Shown: positions 2,625 through 24,004 of the stretch, one piece after another
How the letters are laid out: each line of letters starts with the position of its first letter
Position numbering within the stretch: position 1 is the stretch's first letter
Source: Escherichia coli
GTDB taxonomy: Bacteria; Pseudomonadota; Gammaproteobacteria; Enterobacterales; Enterobacteriaceae
Assembly: GCF_024700885.2 (NCBI RefSeq)
Contig: NZ_CP117016.1
DNA: 64,000 bases
Reading direction: 5' to 3' (one strand)
Made by a program: the position numbers and the translations under genes
The notes under the pieces: generated by a model
The model's input: only the letters and a program-made list of their open reading frames with translations
Told to the model about the DNA's origin: nothing
The model's database searches: none

Positions 2625-3085
2625 TCGCTTTCCTCATAGTTCACTTCGGTTAACAGCGGGCCGGACGGTAAATCGCTGTCTTCGATAAAGATGCTTTCAG
2701 TCGCGAAGTCGAGGGCGTATTGCCACAGCCCCCTGACTTCACCGATAAACACCTCGCGGGTCAGCCAGATACGGCGGCGGCAGCCGGGCGGGGTGTGGCC
2801 ACCGAGAATGCGGCGGACAGCATCCAGGACATTAATCGCCCCTTTTTTACCGTTGAGCTGGCGGAAGACCACCGTGACGCAGAGCTGGATAGTCTGAGAC
2901 TGGATCACCGCACCGGTATCATCCGGCCTGTCAAAGCGCGAACCGGCATAGCTCAGCAGCAACGCGCCAACCGGATGGTTCAGGCGATATTCAGCCGGTT
3001 TCTCCGGGAAGTACTCCACCTGCAGTTGCGGCAGCTTCTCGCGTAACCGGGCCAGTACCGCATCAAGGACGGGCAGAACGTTCAT
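2621..3085 (-). CDS. phage virion protein (Mu gp37-like, head-tail joining region)
   Basis: 154 aa, translationally coupled to flanking late genes. Confidence 0.5.
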   Translation of the reverse strand: MNVLPVLDAVLARLREKLPQLQVEYFPEKPAEYRLNHPVGALLLSYAGSRFDRPDDTGAVIQSQTIQLCVTVVFRQLNGKKGAINVLDAVRRILGGHTPPGCRRRIWLTREVFIGEVRGLWQYALDFATESIFIEDSDLPSGPLLTEVNYEESE

Positions 3086-3531
3086 CAGTATTTCTCCAGT
3101 AAACCGTCACGACCGCCGAAAGTGGCCGGGCGACTGCGTACACGAAACTCGCCAGGCTCAGGCACATCTTTCTGAGTGGACGGCAGCCCCAGCGTGAGCC
3201 TGTTATCACGTAACTCCCTGAGTTGCCGCAGCGCTTCTTTGTGGTCATCCTTCACCGTATCCGGGAGGTCACCTTCCGGGCGGCGGGCGTAGAGCCGGTA
3301 ACGGACCAGCGTGATGGCAATGTCCCGCAGAACAGTCGGTATCTCTGCCAGTGGCAGGATATAGCGTCCGCGCAGATGGGCATCAATCAGCTCGTCGGCA
3401 TAGCGGATACAGCTGTCCACCACACGGGTATTCACTGTTGCAGGCGAGTCGAAGTCCATCTCTTCACTGGTGAGCTCGATAAGCGTCCGCTCCGGCACCT
3501 GCGCAAGCAAATCCTCCAGGGTGCAGTACAT
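3085..3531 (-). CDS. phage head-tail connector-like protein (Mu gp36-like); start trimmed to internal ATG at 3531
   Basis: ATG at 3531 sits 1 nt after the upstream gene's TGA; the longer track ORF would overlap the upstream gene. Confidence 0.5.
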   Translation of the reverse strand: MYCTLEDLLAQVPERTLIELTSEEMDFDSPATVNTRVVDSCIRYADELIDAHLRGRYILPLAEIPTVLRDIAITLVRYRLYARRPEGDLPDTVKDDHKEALRQLRELRDNRLTLGLPSTQKDVPEPGEFRVRSRPATFGGRDGLLEKY

Positions 3532-6178: not shown

Positions 6179-6637
6179 TCAGCGACGGGCCGCTGATTCA
6201 AGATGGCGGACAATGGTATCGAGGATGGGGATTACCACTTCAGGCTGTAGTTCTCCATCCCCCGTCACCGGCAGGAACGGGCGGGCCGGAAGTTCAACAG
6301 ACTCATTACGCCCCGTTTTACCCCCGAACTGGTGAATGGCACCGTAAACAACGTTGGTCCCCACAACAGCCTGCCGGTCGTCATGGTCGGTTGATACTGA
6401 CCCCATCAGACGCCCGGTATCCTGCAGTGTCTGCCCGTCACGCTCTTCCGCTGCCAGCGAGGGCATCCACCCCGGACGCCCCTCATCAAGAAAGTTAAAC
6501 TGTGTTTCCGCCAGCAGGGTTCCGGCAATTTTGCGCATCGCGGGCTCCAGGTCTGTGGCAGCAAGATCCAGCGCACGGAGGCTCCGGCGCAGGGATTTAT
6601 CGTTAATGGTGATACTGACCAGGTTATCGGAAGCCAT
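6179..6637 (-). CDS. phage virion morphogenesis protein (Mu G-like)
   Basis: 152 aa immediately downstream of the F-like gene. Confidence 0.6.
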   Translation of the reverse strand: MASDNLVSITINDKSLRRSLRALDLAATDLEPAMRKIAGTLLAETQFNFLDEGRPGWMPSLAAEERDGQTLQDTGRLMGSVSTDHDDRQAVVGTNVVYGAIHQFGGKTGRNESVELPARPFLPVTGDGELQPEVVIPILDTIVRHLESAARR

Positions 6638-14889: not shown

Positions 14890-15079
14890 TCCCTAAACCA
14901 CATTAACAGAAATCCCGCCATCCCTGCCGCATCATGAAAGAACGACCAGCCCGGCACCCGAAAGCCGGGCTGGTCATCGCCCCACAGGAATGCGCTGTGA
15001 GCCGACCAAGGTTCAGTCAGTCTCGCGAGACCTGACCAGACTGCCATATTTTTTAATAATTGTAAAAGGCTTGCAGATT

Positions 15080-15844
15080 ATGAAAATGCAGACATTACCC
15101 ATCGTGCCGTGGATTGGTGGCAAACGCCGCCTTGCAAAACACATTCTGCCGCTGTTTCCGGCGCATGAATGTTATGTGGAGCCGTTTTGTGGGGCAGCAG
15201 CGCTCTATTTTCTTAAGACACCCGGCAAGATCGAAGTCATCAATGATATCAACGGTGAACTGGTGAATCTGTACCGGGTGGTAAAGCATCACCTGGAAGA
15301 ATTTGTCCGCCAGTTCAAATGGGCGCTGGTCAGCCGTCAGATCTACAAATGGCTGCAGATCACCCCGGAAGAAACACTGACGGATATCCAGCGTGCGGCA
15401 CGGTTCTACTACCTTCAGAAGCAGGCGTTTGGCGGCAAGGTGGCAGAGCACAGCTTCGGTACCTCCACCACATCCCCGCCACGCTTCAACCTGCTACGTA
15501 TTGAAGAAGAACTGTCAGCGGCACACCTGCGGCTTTCCAGAACAGTCATAGAACACATGGACTGGCAACAGTGCATTGAGCGTTATGATCGTCCGCACAC
15601 GCTGTTCTACTGCGACCCACCGTACCTGGGTACGGAAGGCTATGGTGTGGATTTTCCTGAAGGGAACTACTCGCGGCTGGCAGAGCTGGCCCGGTGCATC
15701 AGAGGAAAAATGATAATTTCGGTGAACGACATCCCGCAGATGCGCGAGGTGTTCACTGGACTGAACATACAGACAGTGAATATCAACTACAGTCTGGCGG
15801 GTAAACCCACGCCGCGCCGTGAACTGCTAATCTGCAACTTCTGA
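15080..15844 (+). CDS. DNA N6-adenine methyltransferase, Dam family (orphan)
   Basis: DPPY catalytic motif (FYCDPPYLG) and N-terminal PWIGGKRRL motif typical of Dam-family enzymes; no adjacent restriction endonuclease. Confidence 0.8.
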   Translation: MKMQTLPIVPWIGGKRRLAKHILPLFPAHECYVEPFCGAAALYFLKTPGKIEVINDINGELVNLYRVVKHHLEEFVRQFKWALVSRQIYKWLQITPEETLTDIQRAARFYYLQKQAFGGKVAEHSFGTSTTSPPRFNLLRIEEELSAAHLRLSRTVIEHMDWQQCIERYDRPHTLFYCDPPYLGTEGYGVDFPEGNYSRLAELARCIRGKMIISVNDIPQMREVFTGLNIQTVNINYSLAGKPTPRRELLICNF

Positions 15845-18223: not shown

Positions 18224-19993
18224 ATGACCCCGGCACTGACTGAAAAACTGGTTGAAACAGCCCGCGCGGCACGTGACGCGGGGCATGGTAAACGCGGTGC
18301 AATATACGACGCTGCCTGTGCTGAACTTGGCATGTCCCGCGCCACTCTGCTGCGCAGGCTGAAGGAGGTATCTGTGACTGATAAACGCAAAAAACGCGCC
18401 GATGCCGGGCGCAGCGCCCTGACCCGCGACGAAGCCGCGCTGATATCTGCCACACTGCGTGAGGCCACCCGCAAGAACGGTAAGCGTCTCTATTCCATCG
18501 CAGATGCAGTGGAAACCCTGCGGGCTAACGGCTTTATCACCGCAGGCAGAACAGATGAAACCACCAGTGAGTTTTTCCCGTTGTCTGAAGATGCCATCAG
18601 CCGTGCTCTGCGTAACTATGGCCTGCACCCGGAACAACTGGATGCCCCTGCACCACATACCGAAGTGGCCAGTCTGCATCCCAATCATGTCTGGCAGATT
18701 GACGCCTCACTCTGCACGCTTTACTACCTGAGCAATGGACATAAAGGGCTGCAGGTGATGGACAGCGCGAAGTTCTACAAGAACAAGCCCGCTAACCTTG
18801 CCCGTATCGCCAGTGACCGCGTGTGGAGTTACGAGATTACCGACCATGCCAGCGGCTGGATTTACGTTGAGTATGTGACGGGCGCGGAATCAGGTGAGAA
18901 CCTGTGTTCTGTGCTTATCAACGCCATGCAGGAGCGTGGCGGCGCAGACGTGCTGCACGGCGTGCCGAAAATACTCTATCTCGACCCCGGCTCGGCAAAC
19001 ACCGCGGGTATGACGAAAAACATGTGCCGCTCACTGGGCATCGACCTGATAGCGCACAAGCCGCATAACGCCCGCGCCACCGGACAGGTGGAAAAGGCGC
19101 GTGACATTATCGAACGCAAGCTGGAGCCGGGTCTGAAGTTCCGGCCGGTTCACAGTCTGGAAGAACTCAACGCGCTGGCCGCGAAATGGCGCAGCCACTT
19201 TAACGCCACGGCTGTTCACAGCCGCCACGGTAAAACCCGCACGGATATCTGGCTGAAGATTACTGCTGAGCAGCTGAAAAAAGCGCCTTCCGTTGAGGTA
19301 TGTCGTGAACTGGCTGTGGCGGCACCAGAACTCCGCAAAGTCACGCCAAAACTTCGTGTCTCGTTCCGGGGCACTGAATTTGACGTATCAACGGTACCGG
19401 GCGTACTGGTTGGTGAAAAACTGATGATTACCCGTAACCCATGGCGCAGCGATGTGGCACAGGTGGTTCTGACCGGTGAGGACGGCCACGAGACGTTCTT
19501 CCTGGTCGAAGAGGTCAGAAAGAACGAGTTTGGCTTTGCTGAAGGCGCGGCGGTATTTGGCGAAAGTTACAAAGCCCTGCCGGAAACCCCGGCACAGATG
19601 GCGGCAAAAGAAACCGAAGCGCTGGTTACCGGTACAGACAACGCCGCAGATGCAGCCGCCGCACGCAAGGCGAAGGCGCTGCCGTTCGGCGGGCGGCTTG
19701 ACCCGTATAAACATATCGACGACACCACACTTCCGGCCTATATGCCGAAGCGTGGTCAGGCCTCTGACGTACGCGGGCCGCGCACTGAACAACGTCCCAT
19801 GACTCATGTGGAGGCCGCGAAAGCCCTGCGCGATAAGTTCAGCGCCGACGGCCTTACCTGGACGCCGGAACATTACCGCCAGTTAACGGCACAGTACCCG
19901 GACGGCGTACCGGAAGCCGCACTGGATGAAGTCATGGCCACGCTGACCACACCGGCCCGCAGCAGTGTTATCAGCATTGTTAACGGCAACTGA
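18224..19993 (+). CDS. DDE transposase (Mu A analogue, integrase-core type)
   Basis: 589 aa; N-terminal HTH, WQIDAS and LYLDPGSANT DDE-type motifs; followed by ATPase partner. Confidence 0.8.
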   Translation: MTPALTEKLVETARAARDAGHGKRGAIYDAACAELGMSRATLLRRLKEVSVTDKRKKRADAGRSALTRDEAALISATLREATRKNGKRLYSIADAVETLRANGFITAGRTDETTSEFFPLSEDAISRALRNYGLHPEQLDAPAPHTEVASLHPNHVWQIDASLCTLYYLSNGHKGLQVMDSAKFYKNKPANLARIASDRVWSYEITDHASGWIYVEYVTGAESGENLCSVLINAMQERGGADVLHGVPKILYLDPGSANTAGMTKNMCRSLGIDLIAHKPHNARATGQVEKARDIIERKLEPGLKFRPVHSLEELNALAAKWRSHFNATAVHSRHGKTRTDIWLKITAEQLKKAPSVEVCRELAVAAPELRKVTPKLRVSFRGTEFDVSTVPGVLVGEKLMITRNPWRSDVAQVVLTGEDGHETFFLVEEVRKNEFGFAEGAAVFGESYKALPETPAQMAAKETEALVTGTDNAADAAAARKAKALPFGGRLDPYKHIDDTTLPAYMPKRGQASDVRGPRTEQRPMTHVEAAKALRDKFSADGLTWTPEHYRQLTAQYPDGVPEAALDEVMATLTTPARSSVISIVNGN

Positions 19994-21172: not shown

Positions 21173-21442
21173 ATGAAATCCACCACAGGTATCAACCAGC
21201 AAATCAGCAAAGTGCAGTCAGCCATTATGGCGCTTAAGGCGACGAACACGGATGTACAAAGCATCACCATCAGGGGTAACAAACCTGTCATCCGCGTTTC
21301 CCGGAGTGCGCATTGCATGCGCATGCTTGAGCAGGGAAAGGCCTGTTATCTGTATACCGGTCATGACCACAGGGGACATTTCCGTCAGGGCGTTTTCGAA
21401 CTGCACGGCTGTCGCGTCGTGTGGCCGGAATCTTTGTGGTAA
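21173..21442 (+). CDS. hypothetical small early protein (kil position)
   Basis: 89 aa immediately after the ATPase gene. Confidence 0.4.
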   Translation: MKSTTGINQQISKVQSAIMALKATNTDVQSITIRGNKPVIRVSRSAHCMRMLEQGKACYLYTGHDHRGHFRQGVFELHGCRVVWPESLW

Positions 21443-21469
21443 TCAGCACAACAGGAGGAGTCATAAAAT

Positions 21470-22000
21470 ATGGCAAAAAGTACAAAAGGGGCAAAACGTA
21501 TCAAAGCCGCAGCAGCACTCTGGGTGCCGGGGACACGCGAAGAGGTCATTGAGGGAATCAGACTGCTTGGTGACGCGCAACGTGAACTGGTCAGGGCTGA
21601 AACAGAAATGAATGACACCATTGGCGACATCACTGCACGTTATGCCCCGCTCACCGAGAGCCTGAAAAAACGCATGGCCGAACTGCAGTCCGGTATCCAG
21701 ACATGGTGTGAGGCGCACCGTGATGAACTGACCGGCAACGGGAAGGTGAAGTTCGCTAACCTCACCACCGGCGAGGTGCAGTGGCGAAACCGTCCGCCGT
21801 CAGTCAGCATTCGCGGGGCGGATAATGTCATTGAACTGCTGAGACGTCTGGGGCTTGAGCGCTTTATTCGTGTAAAAGAGGAAATAAATAAAGACGCTAT
21901 CCTGAATGAAAAAGAGGCCGTGAAAAATATTCCCGGTATTTCCATTAAAAGCGACATTGAGGATTTTTCAATAATTCCTTTTGAGCAGGATGTGCAGTAA
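21470..22000 (+). CDS. gam: Gam-like host-nuclease inhibitor (DNA-end binding)
   Basis: 176 aa; sequence strongly reminiscent of Mu Gam family. Confidence 0.75.
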   Translation: MAKSTKGAKRIKAAAALWVPGTREEVIEGIRLLGDAQRELVRAETEMNDTIGDITARYAPLTESLKKRMAELQSGIQTWCEAHRDELTGNGKVKFANLTTGEVQWRNRPPSVSIRGADNVIELLRRLGLERFIRVKEEINKDAILNEKEAVKNIPGISIKSDIEDFSIIPFEQDVQ

Positions 22001-22097
22001 ACACACCACGTTAATTATTTAATAAAAACATTTTCTTTTTTATTCCGACGTCAGCGCCGCGGGCTTCTGCACGCCGGAAACAGAGGAGAATTAAATC

Positions 22098-22292
22098 ATG
22101 ATATTTAAATGTATTCAGTGCGAGAGGGATATAACAGCCCTGCGTTTTCACAGCGCCATCGCCGTGATGTCCGGTAAATACCACATCCCTGCGGTACGCG
22201 TCACCCTGGTCTGCCCGTACTGCAGCCAGCATTTTTCGGCAGACGTGCCCGTCATGGAATTCTCCCGCCCTGACAGGGAGGACTCGCAATGA
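22098..22292 (+). CDS. small zinc-ribbon protein
   Basis: 64 aa with CIQC ... CPYC. Confidence 0.45.
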   Translation: MIFKCIQCERDITALRFHSAIAVMSGKYHIPAVRVTLVCPYCSQHFSADVPVMEFSRPDREDSQ

Positions 22293-22561
22293 TTACCCCA
22301 CAGGAAGCACGACAGCGCACCCGAACCCTTGTTGAACACTATGTCAACGAGTGTGAATGCCGCGACCTCACCGATGTGAAGCACGTCCTGACGGCGCTAA
22401 TCAGCATGACCGCTCAAGCCATTGTGGCGACCAACGGAAAGGCGGCTGCCCTGCAGGTACTGGTGAACACACTAACCCACACGGCAGCGCATGAGGTGCC
22501 GTACCGGATGGAAACCACTGCAGAAGGCGGCCTGCACATCACCGTCAGCCGGAAGCACTGA
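22289..22561 (+). CDS. hypothetical protein
   Basis: 90 aa, start overlaps upstream stop. Confidence 0.4.
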   Translation: MITPQEARQRTRTLVEHYVNECECRDLTDVKHVLTALISMTAQAIVATNGKAAALQVLVNTLTHTAAHEVPYRMETTAEGGLHITVSRKH

Positions 22562-22570
22562 GGGCGCGGC

Positions 22571-22867
22571 ATGACACGGAACACCATACTCACCCGCACC
22601 GCCCTCTACCGTCTGGCCCTGCAGCGTTTCGGGCCGGACGCACAGGCCCTGAAACTGACAGAAGAGGCCGCTGAACTGGCGGCCAGTGCTGCCCGCAATC
22701 TGAACGGACAGGGCAGCGAAAGCGACCTCGCGGCAGAGCTGGCAGACGTGGAAATCATGACAGAGCAATTGCGCCTTCAGGGGATGGACCGGCTGATTGA
22801 CTTCCACAAACAGAAAAAACTGGAACGTCTGGCTGCACGACTGGGCGTGATTTACACGAACGAGTAA
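22571..22867 (+). CDS. MazG-like nucleotide pyrophosphohydrolase domain protein
   Basis: 98 aa; EEAAEL ... AAELADVEIM matches the EExxE...ExxD all-alpha NTP-PPase pattern. Confidence 0.5.
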   Translation: MTRNTILTRTALYRLALQRFGPDAQALKLTEEAAELAASAARNLNGQGSESDLAAELADVEIMTEQLRLQGMDRLIDFHKQKKLERLAARLGVIYTNE

Positions 22868-22881
22868 CCGGGAGGCATTCA

Positions 22882-23097
22882 ATGGCTGACATACTCAGGG
22901 AAATCACCGCATGGATACTGATTCTTACTGGCCTGGCGACATGCCTCAGTGCGGGGGCAGCCCTGGCTGCCCTGCTGATGCACATAACAACACAGTGGTT
23001 ATGGGAAAAGCTTAAAGCAGCATACAGCCTGAAAGAGCTGTCCGACGCTGTCCGGGCATGGAAACGGCAGAAAAATACCGGAGATACAGAACAATGA
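22882..23097 (+). CDS. small membrane protein
   Basis: 71 aa, one hydrophobic segment. Confidence 0.4.
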   Translation: MADILREITAWILILTGLATCLSAGAALAALLMHITTQWLWEKLKAAYSLKELSDAVRAWKRQKNTGDTEQ

Positions 23098-23777
23098 CAG
23101 ACCAGAATAAACACATTGAGAAACTGAAAAAGTTGCTGGCGCTGGCCGCATCCGGCAACCCGCACGAGGCCGCTCTGGCACTGTGCCGAGCCCGTAAACT
23201 GATGGATGTTCACGGCATCACACATTCCGACATTGCTATGAGTGATATTGATGAAACCATCAGTCACTACTGGCCGACAGGCAGTCTCCGTCCACCGCGC
23301 TACATGCTGGGCCTGATGAACATCATCCGCGAGGTATTTGGTGTTAACTCCATCATTCACCCCGGCACGCATCCGTCTGTGGGGTTCTACGGCAACCGGG
23401 AACGTGCGGCACTGGCTGCATACACCTGGGAAGTGCTGGCCCGTCAGCTGAAAAAGGCGCGTCAGCAGTATATCAGTGCACAGAACAAAAGAATAAAAAC
23501 CGCCACCCGCACCAGCCGTGGAGACCAGTTTGCCGAAGGCTGGGTGCTGGCCGTTATCAGTGAAATACAGTCCTTTGCCCTGACCGATGATGAGCGTGAA
23601 CTGATGCAGCAGTGGCTGGAACATAAATACCCGCAGACGCAAACCACCAGGGCGCGTAAACCGGGAAGAAGCCGCAATGGCGACGCCTCGCGCTATGCGG
23701 GGTTTCGTGAAGGGCAGAACGTCAGACTGCACCGCCCGGTCAGTGGGCAGGAACAACAGAAACTGGAGGCCAGATGA
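23094..23777 (+). CDS. DUF2786-like phage protein; start set at ATG 23094
   Basis: N-terminal IEKLKKLLALAASGNPHEAALA motif. Confidence 0.5.
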   Translation: MTDQNKHIEKLKKLLALAASGNPHEAALALCRARKLMDVHGITHSDIAMSDIDETISHYWPTGSLRPPRYMLGLMNIIREVFGVNSIIHPGTHPSVGFYGNRERAALAAYTWEVLARQLKKARQQYISAQNKRIKTATRTSRGDQFAEGWVLAVISEIQSFALTDDERELMQQWLEHKYPQTQTTRARKPGRSRNGDASRYAGFREGQNVRLHRPVSGQEQQKLEAR

Positions 23778-24004
23778 TTACGCTATCAGGTAAAAGCCGG
23801 AAATTAAAAGCCTGCCGAATATCTGCCAGATACCTTTTTGCCCGCGCCTTTTTTAAGAACGTCAGGCCGGGGATCACAATTGGTGTTATTGCCGGACGCG
23901 AACAGGTTGAAAAATACATGTCAGGTGCATGGTGGAATAACGACCCTGTCATTGCTGCCCGTAATATTCATATCGAATGGGGAGGTATTCAGAATGACTA
24001 CTGA
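23774..24004 (+). CDS. hypothetical small protein
   Basis: 76 aa, overlapping start with upstream stop. Confidence 0.35.
   Translation: MITLSGKSRKLKACRISARYLFARAFFKNVRPGITIGVIAGREQVEKYMSGAWWNNDPVIAARNIHIEWGGIQNDY

Follow-up and report, generated by a model that had tools for sequence, protein, structure and literature searches.

The window, a 64,000-nucleotide stretch of Escherichia coli DNA (contig NZ_CP117016.1), carries a BcepMu/Mu-like transposable prophage with 98.4% identity to Escherichia phage PhiKM, which was deposited in GenBank as a phage of uropathogenic E. coli. We found this prophage in 620 of 5426 complete E. coli genomes (~11%), ST131 among them, and the host gene flanking it varies by strain, being cysE in one and aes in another. 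On the plus strand, the early genes run from an rve transposase (Pfam E=9.8e-9) through an AAA+ B-like protein (AAA_22, 3.6e-20) and the host-nuclease inhibitor gene gam (21470..22000; PF07352, 1.9e-40) to three small genes, followed by GemA (8.3e-41) and Mor (1.3e-43). This order agrees with that of phage Mu and puts the three small genes, all on one strand, between transposase/B/Gam and GemA/Mor, in the Mu-like early or 'semi-essential' position. Both the gene order and the Pfam matches to Gam, GemA and Mor thus agree with the sequence-only reading of the locus, which had placed the trio in the early region downstream of gam. In a sister lineage the gam position is taken by a DUF3164 gene, so that gam and DUF3164 alternate. 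Elsewhere in the same prophage, a D12-class adenine methyltransferase is encoded at 14990-15844.

The three genes, all on the plus strand, encode a 64-aa C4 zinc-ribbon protein (ZnR; 22098..22292), a 90-aa protein (p90; 22289..22561) and a 98-aa protein predicted to be a MazG-like all-alpha NTP pyrophosphohydrolase (22571..22867). The trio had been proposed from open reading frames, and its members proved to be real genes at these positions. Each matches a PHROG family over its full length (ZnR, phrog_3401, E=1.6e-40; p90, phrog_3691, annotated function unknown, E=7.4e-55; MazG-like protein, phrog_2245, 'nucleoside triphosphate pyrophosphohydrolase', E=2.8e-34), NCBI PGAP annotates identical CDSs in RefSeq E. 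coli genomes, the ZnR cysteines are invariant, and pN/pS among prophage variants is 0.12 for ZnR, 0.50 for p90 and 0.18 for the MazG-like gene. A 73-92-aa minus-strand ORF that lies over ZnR and is annotated in the PhiKM GenBank record was rejected (pN/pS 2.25 vs 0.12 for ZnR). The further proposal that the trio is translationally coupled downstream of gam held in part. ZnR and p90 share an ATGA overlap; p90 and the MazG-like gene are 9 nt apart, with a GAGGG Shine-Dalgarno sequence; and ZnR is uncoupled from gam, because a 97-nt intergenic region separates them. The close spacing of the three genes is simply that of the entire early operon. Next on the plus strand lie a gene for a 71-aa hydrophobic, probably membrane protein (22882..23097; an ORF matching phrog_3958, annotated function unknown) and a DUF2786/DUF7168 gene (23094..23777; PF23771, 1.2e-25; PF10979, 6.1e-10).

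The intergenic region after gam contains a conserved non-coding element on the plus strand (22030..22083), made up of a T-rich tract, a GC-rich hairpin with its stem at about 22043-22079, and the sequence GAAACAG; it ends ~14 nt 5' of the ZnR start codon. The element is ~89% identical between lineages, with 56-70% identity for the flanking CDSs, and its exact 27-nt core is present in 51 IMG/VR loci. Klebsiella phage Kp4866-3 also has a homologous element, and so does phage Mu, where it follows gam in the 98-nt gam-gp11 gap and carries no annotation. Pairing in the stem is retained in 88% of cells, against 33-56% in slid controls, and three pairs show compensatory change. The reading of the hairpin as an intrinsic terminator or a sigma-70 promoter was rejected: a scan reported no such site there, and on both strands the stem is followed by A-rich sequence with no T run. 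Sequestration of the Shine-Dalgarno sequence by the U-tract was likewise rejected, as it folds in the window's lineage (z = -2.4) and is absent from the cross-lineage consensus structure. Rfam gave no match for the element, and the papers searched contained nothing pertinent to the part of Mu that follows gam.

The 27-nt hairpin core was used to select a clade of 48 related loci, in which the segment between ZnR and the DUF2786/DUF7168 gene takes at least 14 architectures. ZnR is present in all 48, although the copy in one locus (L057, 28% identical) was missed by BLAST and seen only in the ORF listing, and the DUF2786/DUF7168 gene, the conserved 3' anchor of this variable slot, was detected in 43. 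Between these borders the content changes freely. The MazG-like gene is missing from seven loci, all of which keep ZnR; p90 is missing from seven MazG-positive loci; some loci have ZnR with neither; and the gene for the 71-aa hydrophobic protein is optional cargo, missing in several architectures. A PF04447 dATP/dGTP pyrophosphohydrolase (E=4.7e-44) stands beside the MazG-like gene in two sibling loci (L014 and L026) and in its place in a third (L020), the slot of another (L013) holds a Lar-like restriction-alleviation protein (PF14354, 2.1e-8), and a match to phrog_1518 ('host nuclease inhibitor') lies just outside the slot in L050. In the window's own slot there is no known anti-defence gene, and PADLOC returned no match for any slot protein. 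The trio had been proposed to act as one anti-defence or host-takeover unit. That they form a unit is not supported by the comparison, in which gain and loss of p90 do not track those of the MazG-like gene and ZnR is found without either. We read them as three accessory genes, each on its own, that open a cargo slot prone to recombination.

The gene that always comes first in this slot encodes a protein with the zinc-binding pattern C5xxC8...C39xxC42. Its four cysteines are unchanged in seven sequences, down to 25-27% identity, and the preservation of both knuckles bears out the original description of a CxxC...CxxC zinc ribbon. Curated Pfam and NCBIfam families gave only sub-cut-off matches to ZnR, each covering one knuckle, and a search down to E=1 yielded no Com-named family in either collection. 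ZnR is probably a separately conserved regulator or adaptor that would bind nucleic acid or protein. The second gene, p90, is an optional mosaic insert between ZnR and the MazG-like gene: some variants combine an N-terminal half resembling the Phi06_2974 B type with a C-terminal half that matches the window type. Its invariant residues are C22-x-C24 and AxVATNG, and it has no relatives in PDB or Pfam. Profiles of ZnR and p90 reached nothing meaningful in PDB; the Ika and Tako matches that came up are designed repeat proteins, in which no stretch passed.

The 98-aa protein is, on sequence grounds, very probably a small nucleotide-cleaving MazG-like enzyme, as originally suggested. It contains E31-E32-A-A-E35 and, 20 residues further on, E56-L-A-D59, which fits the superfamily pattern EExxE-(12-28)-ExxD. 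Among 67 diverse homologues, E31 and D59 are invariant, E32, E35 and E56 are at least 90% conserved, and K83 and R86 hardly vary either. Pfam MazG (PF03819) is matched by 16 of these 67 family members (best 2.2e-5), and the 67-sequence family profile reaches MazG-like chains in PDB, aligning the acidic motif with the EExxE/ExxD of Bacillus MazG 5IE9. Temperate phages of Clostridium and Cellulophaga have homologues, as do phage contigs from the gut, and RefSeq names some copies of the protein nucleoside triphosphate pyrophosphohydrolase. The enzyme family is one already named in RefSeq and PHROGs, and there is no new kind of system here. Shallower searches were less informative: the single sequence drew only noise from PDB (IWS1, EsrB), a 14-sequence profile reached no MazG chain there, and the protein by itself stayed below Pfam and NCBIfam cut-offs (PRA-PH, PF01503, E=0.047, 14.5 vs 21.3 bits; hisE, 14.3 vs 42.7).

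We modelled the protein with AF2 from a deep alignment (pLDDT 95.2); this model replaced an earlier one from a shallow alignment (pLDDT 80.7), whose Foldseek list was non-significant. Set against solved superfamily members, the model shows the all-alpha helical-bundle fold, and its nearest structural relatives are NTP pyrophosphohydrolases of the MazG, HisE and iMazG types. Foldseek matches to MazG-type families were non-significant (E at least 0.26, TM 0.37-0.50). As a monomer the model is an extended hairpin of two helices, whereas solved relatives form a compact four-helix bundle, which leaves the oligomeric assembly a putative one.

Together, these results support a reading to which we give a probability of about 70%: three independent accessory genes of a Mu-like early operon sit in a cargo slot, and the 98-aa protein is a minimal MazG-like NTP pyrophosphohydrolase. 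The slot would be bordered at its 5' end by the conserved hairpin and the ZnR gene and at its 3' end by the DUF2786/DUF7168 gene. In the model, two long antiparallel helices of the 98-aa protein carry E31-E32-x-x-E35 and E56-x-x-D59, and two or four chains may assemble into helical bundles, by analogy with solved family members. The acidic residues would then be the binding site for Mg2+ and for the triphosphate of a (d)NTP-like substrate, and cleavage would turn this substrate into a nucleoside monophosphate plus pyrophosphate. Synthesis of the enzyme would fall in the opening minutes of induction, alongside that of the transposase, B and Gam, and its target would be the nucleotide pool of the host. 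There it might trim or sanitise the dNTPs used in replicative transposition, or it might clear away a nucleotide of stress or defence, for instance (p)ppGpp. It is plausible, though only by association with the cargo of sibling phages, that the slot serves host takeover or anti-defence.

What such an enzyme would do for the phage can be read in several ways. A tentative possibility, which we do not hold to be probable, is that it cleans or shapes the pool for phage DNA synthesis, acting on canonical or damaged dNTPs (dUTP, 8-oxo-dGTP, dCTP, dGTP) with no link to defence; replicative transposition would be kept accurate, or the pool skewed to phage needs. Such activities define the superfamily, MazG, HisE and iMazG-type enzymes being the nearest structural relatives, and a cyanophage MazG is active on dGTP and dCTP (PMC6850273). 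The gene also shares its early operon with the transposase, B and Gam, the PF04447 enzyme that takes the MazG position in one sibling slot is itself a dATP/dGTP pyrophosphohydrolase, and homologues belong to temperate and gut phages, some of them bearing the RefSeq name of NTP pyrophosphohydrolase. Against this, the gene is dispensable, as the seven sibling loci that do without it indicate, and the host, E. coli, brings Dut, MutT, MazG and RdgB of its own.

Somewhat unlikely, in our estimate, is an anti-defence role of the Atd1 kind, in which the 98-aa enzyme would hydrolyse (p)ppGpp or some other nucleotide made under stress or by a defence system (such as pppApp, dITP/ITP or dUTP), and so keep alarmones from activating toxins, or abortive infection from running its course, during prophage induction. 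The precedent is Atd1 itself, through (p)ppGpp depletion and rescue of cells from TIR-STING toxicity (bioRxiv 10.1101/2022.06.09.495361), and the Lar-like gene in the equivalent slot of a sibling phage and the adenine methyltransferase in the same prophage point in the same direction, as does the accessory, patchy distribution of the MazG-like gene, which is usual for counter-defence genes. However, the argument draws on neighbour genes in sibling phages only, no PADLOC family was matched, and a tblastn search of 50,697 phage records with the 98-aa protein returned only four close relatives, none of them a Pectobacterium phage.

It is more doubtful still that ZnR and the MazG-like protein form a two-protein module, the zinc ribbon targeting or regulating the enzyme and p90 being a later insertion. 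The two genes are directly coupled through ATGA in KP12-type prophages (seven loci), ZnR lies immediately or nearly so 5' of the MazG-like gene in every MazG-positive locus of the clade, and a CxxC...CxxC element is fused to the N or C terminus of 9 of 55 extended members of the MazG-like subfamily. Yet these fused zinc modules have no detectable homology to ZnR, seven loci have ZnR without the 98-aa protein, and Kp4866-3 has a MazG-like gene without ZnR. An apparent ZnR-MazG fusion, P0036, was discarded as Rosetta-stone evidence; it is probably an indel artefact, because it comes from frameshift-ridden long-read assemblies in which the transposase is broken up and the MazG C-terminus is thrown out of frame at a poly-A run. 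Least credible, and very improbable in our view, is that the hairpin and ZnR form a Com-like post-transcriptional switch of the slot, in which ZnR or another factor would bind the hairpin and set expression of the downstream accessory genes, with the MazG-like cargo as a counter-defence enzyme destroying a defence or stress nucleotide; the functional analogy stems from Mu Com, a zinc-finger protein of ~62 aa that controls translation through binding to an RNA hairpin, and the element occurs without ZnR in both Kp4866-3 and Mu.

Returning to the favoured reading of independent accessory genes that include a minimal MazG-like enzyme, we compared the locus with known systems. Solved single-domain MazG-like proteins (Sulfolobus SSO3215, 1VMG; Vibrio integron iMazG, 2Q5Z/2Q73; Bacillus MazG, 5IE9; B. 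subtilis YpjD, 2GTA) share only ~20-26% identity with the 98-aa protein, which also differs from them in its extended two-helix predicted monomer and in its location, the early operon of a Mu-like phage. The semi-essential region of phage Mu resembles the locus in its operon position, in its neighbours Gam, GemA and Mor and in its homologous hairpin, but its genes gp11-gp15 after gam include no annotated NTP pyrophosphohydrolase. The PF04447 family occupies the same slot in siblings (L014, L020 and L026), and its Pfam name also predicts NTP hydrolysis; it is, however, a different family of 163 aa that is absent from the window. A swap-prone slot that holds this second type of NTP pyrophosphohydrolase and a Lar-like gene offers a concrete list of candidate accessory genes. 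The MazG-like gene is moreover a tractable case, since the prophage is present in ~11% of complete E. coli genomes and its close relative PhiKM has been deposited.

Two phage proteins frame the question at stake, namely whether the substrates of small phage MazG enzymes are dNTPs or else nucleotides of the alarmone and defence kinds, and these published examples disagree. Atd1 of Pectobacterium phage PcCB7V has a MazG-like catalytic domain, depletes (p)ppGpp and rescues cells from TIR-STING toxicity (Ho et al., bioRxiv 10.1101/2022.06.09.495361). What it has in common with the 98-aa protein is a minimal MazG catalytic domain, encoded by a phage in the company of accessory or anti-defence genes; it differs in its measured ppGpp hydrolysis and rescue phenotype and in coming from another type of phage. 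The MazG of cyanophage S-PM2 is likewise a phage MazG-family pyrophosphohydrolase, long presumed to be active on (p)ppGpp, but its source is a lytic cyanomyovirus; it does not hydrolyse (p)ppGpp and prefers dGTP and dCTP (Rihtman et al. 2019, PMC6850273), a result that warns against deducing the substrate from the family name.

The three genes are part of a Mu-like transposable prophage, within its early operon. Escherichia phage PhiKM, a Bcepmuvirus by classification with a uropathogenic E. coli as its source, shares 98.4% identity with window positions 21400-23900. The prophage is very common in E. coli: the 900 bases around the three genes were present in 620 of 5426 complete genomes, in every case on the chromosome, and the host genes flanking the element varied by strain (cysE in one, aes in another), as expected for a transposing phage. 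The operon, on the plus strand, starts with an rve-type transposase (18224-19993), followed by an AAA+ B-like protein, an 89-aa Kil-like protein and Gam (21470-22000; PF07352, 1.9e-40). A 97-nt non-coding gap leads from gam to a 64-aa zinc-ribbon gene (ZnR, 22098-22292), a 90-aa gene (p90, 22289-22561) and a 98-aa MazG-like gene (22571-22867), after which come TM71, encoding a 71-aa hydrophobic protein (22882-23097), a DUF2786/DUF7168 gene (23094-23777), two small ORFs, GemA (8.3e-41) and Mor (1.3e-43). In sister lineages with the same backbone, either gam (window 21470-22000) or an unrelated DUF3164 gene (2823-3434 in locus L008) occupies the same position, both directly 5' of a conserved hairpin. 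The prophage also encodes a D12-class N6-adenine DNA methyltransferase (14990-15844; PF02086, 8.7e-29), for which an anti-restriction function is possible.

The three ORFs picked out by the sequence-only reading were confirmed at the same coordinates, with PGAP calling the same CDSs in RefSeq, and a Shine-Dalgarno sequence precedes each. When coding frames were compared by substitution patterns among prophage variants, the ZnR plus-strand frame had a pN/pS of 0.12, versus 2.25 for the minus-strand frame and 2.2 and 8.6 for the two shifted plus-strand frames. Therefore, the plus-strand ZnR gene is real, and the minus-strand hypothetical CDS placed over it in the PhiKM GenBank record (window 22011-22289; PQ738613.1 23520-23741) is an annotation error. 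The corresponding values were 0.50 for p90 and 0.18 for the MazG-like gene. Translational coupling downstream of gam, as first proposed, held only in part: ZnR and p90 share an ATGA overlap, but 9 nt separate p90 from the MazG-like gene and 97 nt separate gam from ZnR. Tight packing runs on through the operon, as TM71 and the DUF2786 gene have an ATGA overlap too.

Direct searches with the 98-aa protein gave a mixed picture, and its wider family a stronger one. The searches returned a sole Pfam match, PRA-PH, under the cut-off (E=0.047), a sole NCBIfam match, hisE (0.035), and, with the single sequence against the PDB, noise only. The protein does match phrog_2245 ("nucleoside triphosphate pyrophosphohydrolase", E=2.8e-34), and in recent PGAP annotation it carries the name "nucleoside triphosphate pyrophosphohydrolase family protein". 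An exhaustive profile search gathered 10,837 representative homologues, mostly 85-110 aa, with 2143 below 1e-10. The consensus of 67 diverse members reads Y..A...WG...Q.....EE..EL...(about 20)...EEIADVEIM.EQLR...K..KL.RL., with E31 and D59 invariant and E32, E35, E56, K83 and R86 each kept in 90% or more; the pattern is the EExxE-x(12-28)-ExxD signature by which the all-alpha NTP pyrophosphohydrolase superfamily is recognised. Pfam MazG was matched by 16/67 members, and the family profile reached PDB entries 5IE9, 2Q73/2Q5Z, 2GTA and 1VMG, both acidic motifs aligning with those of 5IE9. AF2 with a deep alignment gave a model (mc8e2740fcf88) of pLDDT 95.2, in which two unbroken helices, about 36 and 42 residues long, form an extended hairpin, whereas solved MazG-like proteins have compact four-helix monomers; on this model, the four-helix bundle probably forms between chains. 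Foldseek listed the same families for the model, none significantly. Our conclusion is that the 98-aa protein is a member of the all-alpha NTP pyrophosphohydrolase superfamily and retains the catalytic residues. The phrog_2245, Pfam, profile and model evidence and the conserved motifs thus bear out the MazG-like reading, both fold class and catalytic residues being present. This assignment is already in public annotation, and the protein adds an uncharacterised new member to a known kind.

A 27-nt core of the gam-ZnR gap, unexpectedly well conserved, served to gather related loci and yielded 51 from IMG/VR; with phage and E. coli loci added, 48 had a complete segment, or slot, between ZnR and the DUF2786/DUF7168 gene. 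These 48 slots showed at least 14 architectures. ZnR was followed by p90, MazG and TM71 in 22 loci, by p90 and MazG in 7, by MazG directly in 4, by MazG and a PF04447 protein in 2, by p90, MazG, p127 and TM71 in 2, by p90, MazG and p89 in 3, and by other cargo lacking the 98-aa MazG in 7. KP12-type prophages have ZnR ATGA-coupled straight to MazG, and in Klebsiella phage Kp4866-3, a more distant phage of Mu-like type, a 162-aa MazG-like gene is present and ZnR is absent. With 7 loci lacking the 98-aa MazG and some lacking p90, the suggestion that the trio forms a unit was not borne out; because the architectures vary so, we conclude that ZnR, p90 and MazG are independently assorting cargo, of which ZnR is the constant member.

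A weaker functional link between ZnR and MazG may exist. The two are adjacent, or nearly so, wherever both occur in this clade, and a CxxC...CxxC module is fused at the N- or C-terminus in 9 of 55 longer MazG-like subfamily members (P0105, P0113, P0165, P0179, P0208, P0219, P0224, P0225 and P0234) and in 0 of 85 short ones. The fused sequences hint at a recurring zinc-module/MazG association. The one apparent natural ZnR-MazG fusion ORF (P0036; loci L004-L006, from ENA long-read assemblies) was discounted as probably a homopolymer indel artefact, these assemblies containing many other frameshifts. ZnR itself has four invariant Cys, a 30-residue spacer and strong constraint; it matched no curated family in Pfam or NCBIfam, none there named for Com, and nothing in the PDB. 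p90 was found only in E. coli-type prophages, and Pfam and PDB searches detected no relatives. C22-x-C24 and AxVATNG are invariant in it, and at least 90% of sequences keep H64. It is mosaic: some variants (window 22289-22561; L003 3289-3561) look recombinant, their N-terminal half (~40 residues) resembling the Phi06_2974 B type and their C-terminal half the window type, with the junction close to the invariant AIVATNG.

The acidic motifs, fold class, early-operon position, purifying selection and dispensability of the 98-aa protein are established observations. By extension from the superfamily, its chains would oligomerise into helical bundles, Mg2+ would be coordinated by E31/E32/E35/E56/D59, K83 and R86 would contact phosphates, and a nucleoside triphosphate-like substrate would be cleaved to NMP and PPi. 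A dNTP or house-cleaning role is our tentative reading (rough probability 0.35). Two unrelated NTP-pyrophosphohydrolase families occur in the slot, once as apparent substitutes, an association that points to selection for a nucleotide-pool function at this site: a scan of alternative cargo in sibling loci revealed a 163-aa PF04447 dATP/dGTP pyrophosphohydrolase (E=4.7e-44) adjoining MazG in L014 (1160-1651) and L026 (1706-2197, minus strand) and occurring without the 98-aa MazG in L020 (1940-2431, minus strand). Action on an alarmone or defence nucleotide is a somewhat less likely alternative, the remaining weight going to neither reading, and the phage MazG literature is divided on substrate. 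Atd1, a MazG-like catalytic domain of Pectobacterium phage PcCB7V, hydrolyses ppGpp with a Km of about 50 uM and guards against TIR-STING toxicity (bioRxiv 10.1101/2022.06.09.495361), whereas the MazG of cyanophage S-PM2 shows no binding or hydrolysis of (p)ppGpp and favours dGTP and dCTP (PMC6850273). An anti-defence role is a reasonable but conjectural idea. The slot can carry counter-defence cargo, judging by association with a Lar-like gene: a 220-aa protein of L013 (4405-5067; phrog_599) contains a Lar restriction-alleviation domain (PF14354, 2.1e-8). Just outside the slot, a 161-aa protein of L050 (3673-4158, minus strand) matches phrog_1518 "host nuclease inhibitor". PADLOC models matched none of the window's slot proteins. 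A tblastn of the 98-aa protein against phage records found four, with no close phage relative outside its own clade; a more typical subfamily member as query picked up homologues from human faecal phage contigs and from phages of Clostridium and Cellulophaga.

The least expected observation was a post-gam hairpin common to phage Mu. The 97-nt gam-ZnR gap holds a T-tract, a GC-rich hairpin and a GAAACAG block (window about 22030-22083; L009 3913-3966), of sequence TTTTCTTTTTTATTCCGACGTCAGCGCCGCGGGCTTCTGCACGCCGGAAACAG, with a folded stem of about 15 bp. The block is ~89% identical between two prophage lineages, one of which has DUF3164 instead of gam 5' of it, whereas the flanking genes are just 56-70% identical in DNA. 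Of the cells in an alignment of 7 sequences, 88% pair versus 33-56% in slid controls, with compensatory changes at 3 pairs, which lends modest support, from few sequences, to conserved pairing. The block always ends about 20 nt before the next start codon, whichever gene comes next: usually ZnR, a different 69-aa ORF in two loci (L010 and L055), and in Kp4866-3 the MazG-like gene itself. Since the hairpin is also found where ZnR is absent, the two are unlikely to be strict partners. A promoter and terminator scan reported no terminator or sigma-70 promoter at the hairpin, Rfam gave no match, and the phage Mu record carries no annotation at this position. The element may determine RNA processing or stability, act as a translational operator or serve as a DNA site for protein binding. 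The B-to-mor region of phage Mu has the same layout as the window operon, and its 98-nt gam-gp11 gap contains a recognisably homologous element (L061 2346-2412, which is AF083977 about 6345-6411) with the same flanks (CATTCTTTTAATTA ... GAAACAG), but with a different stem sequence, GGCGCGA/TCGCGCC in Mu.
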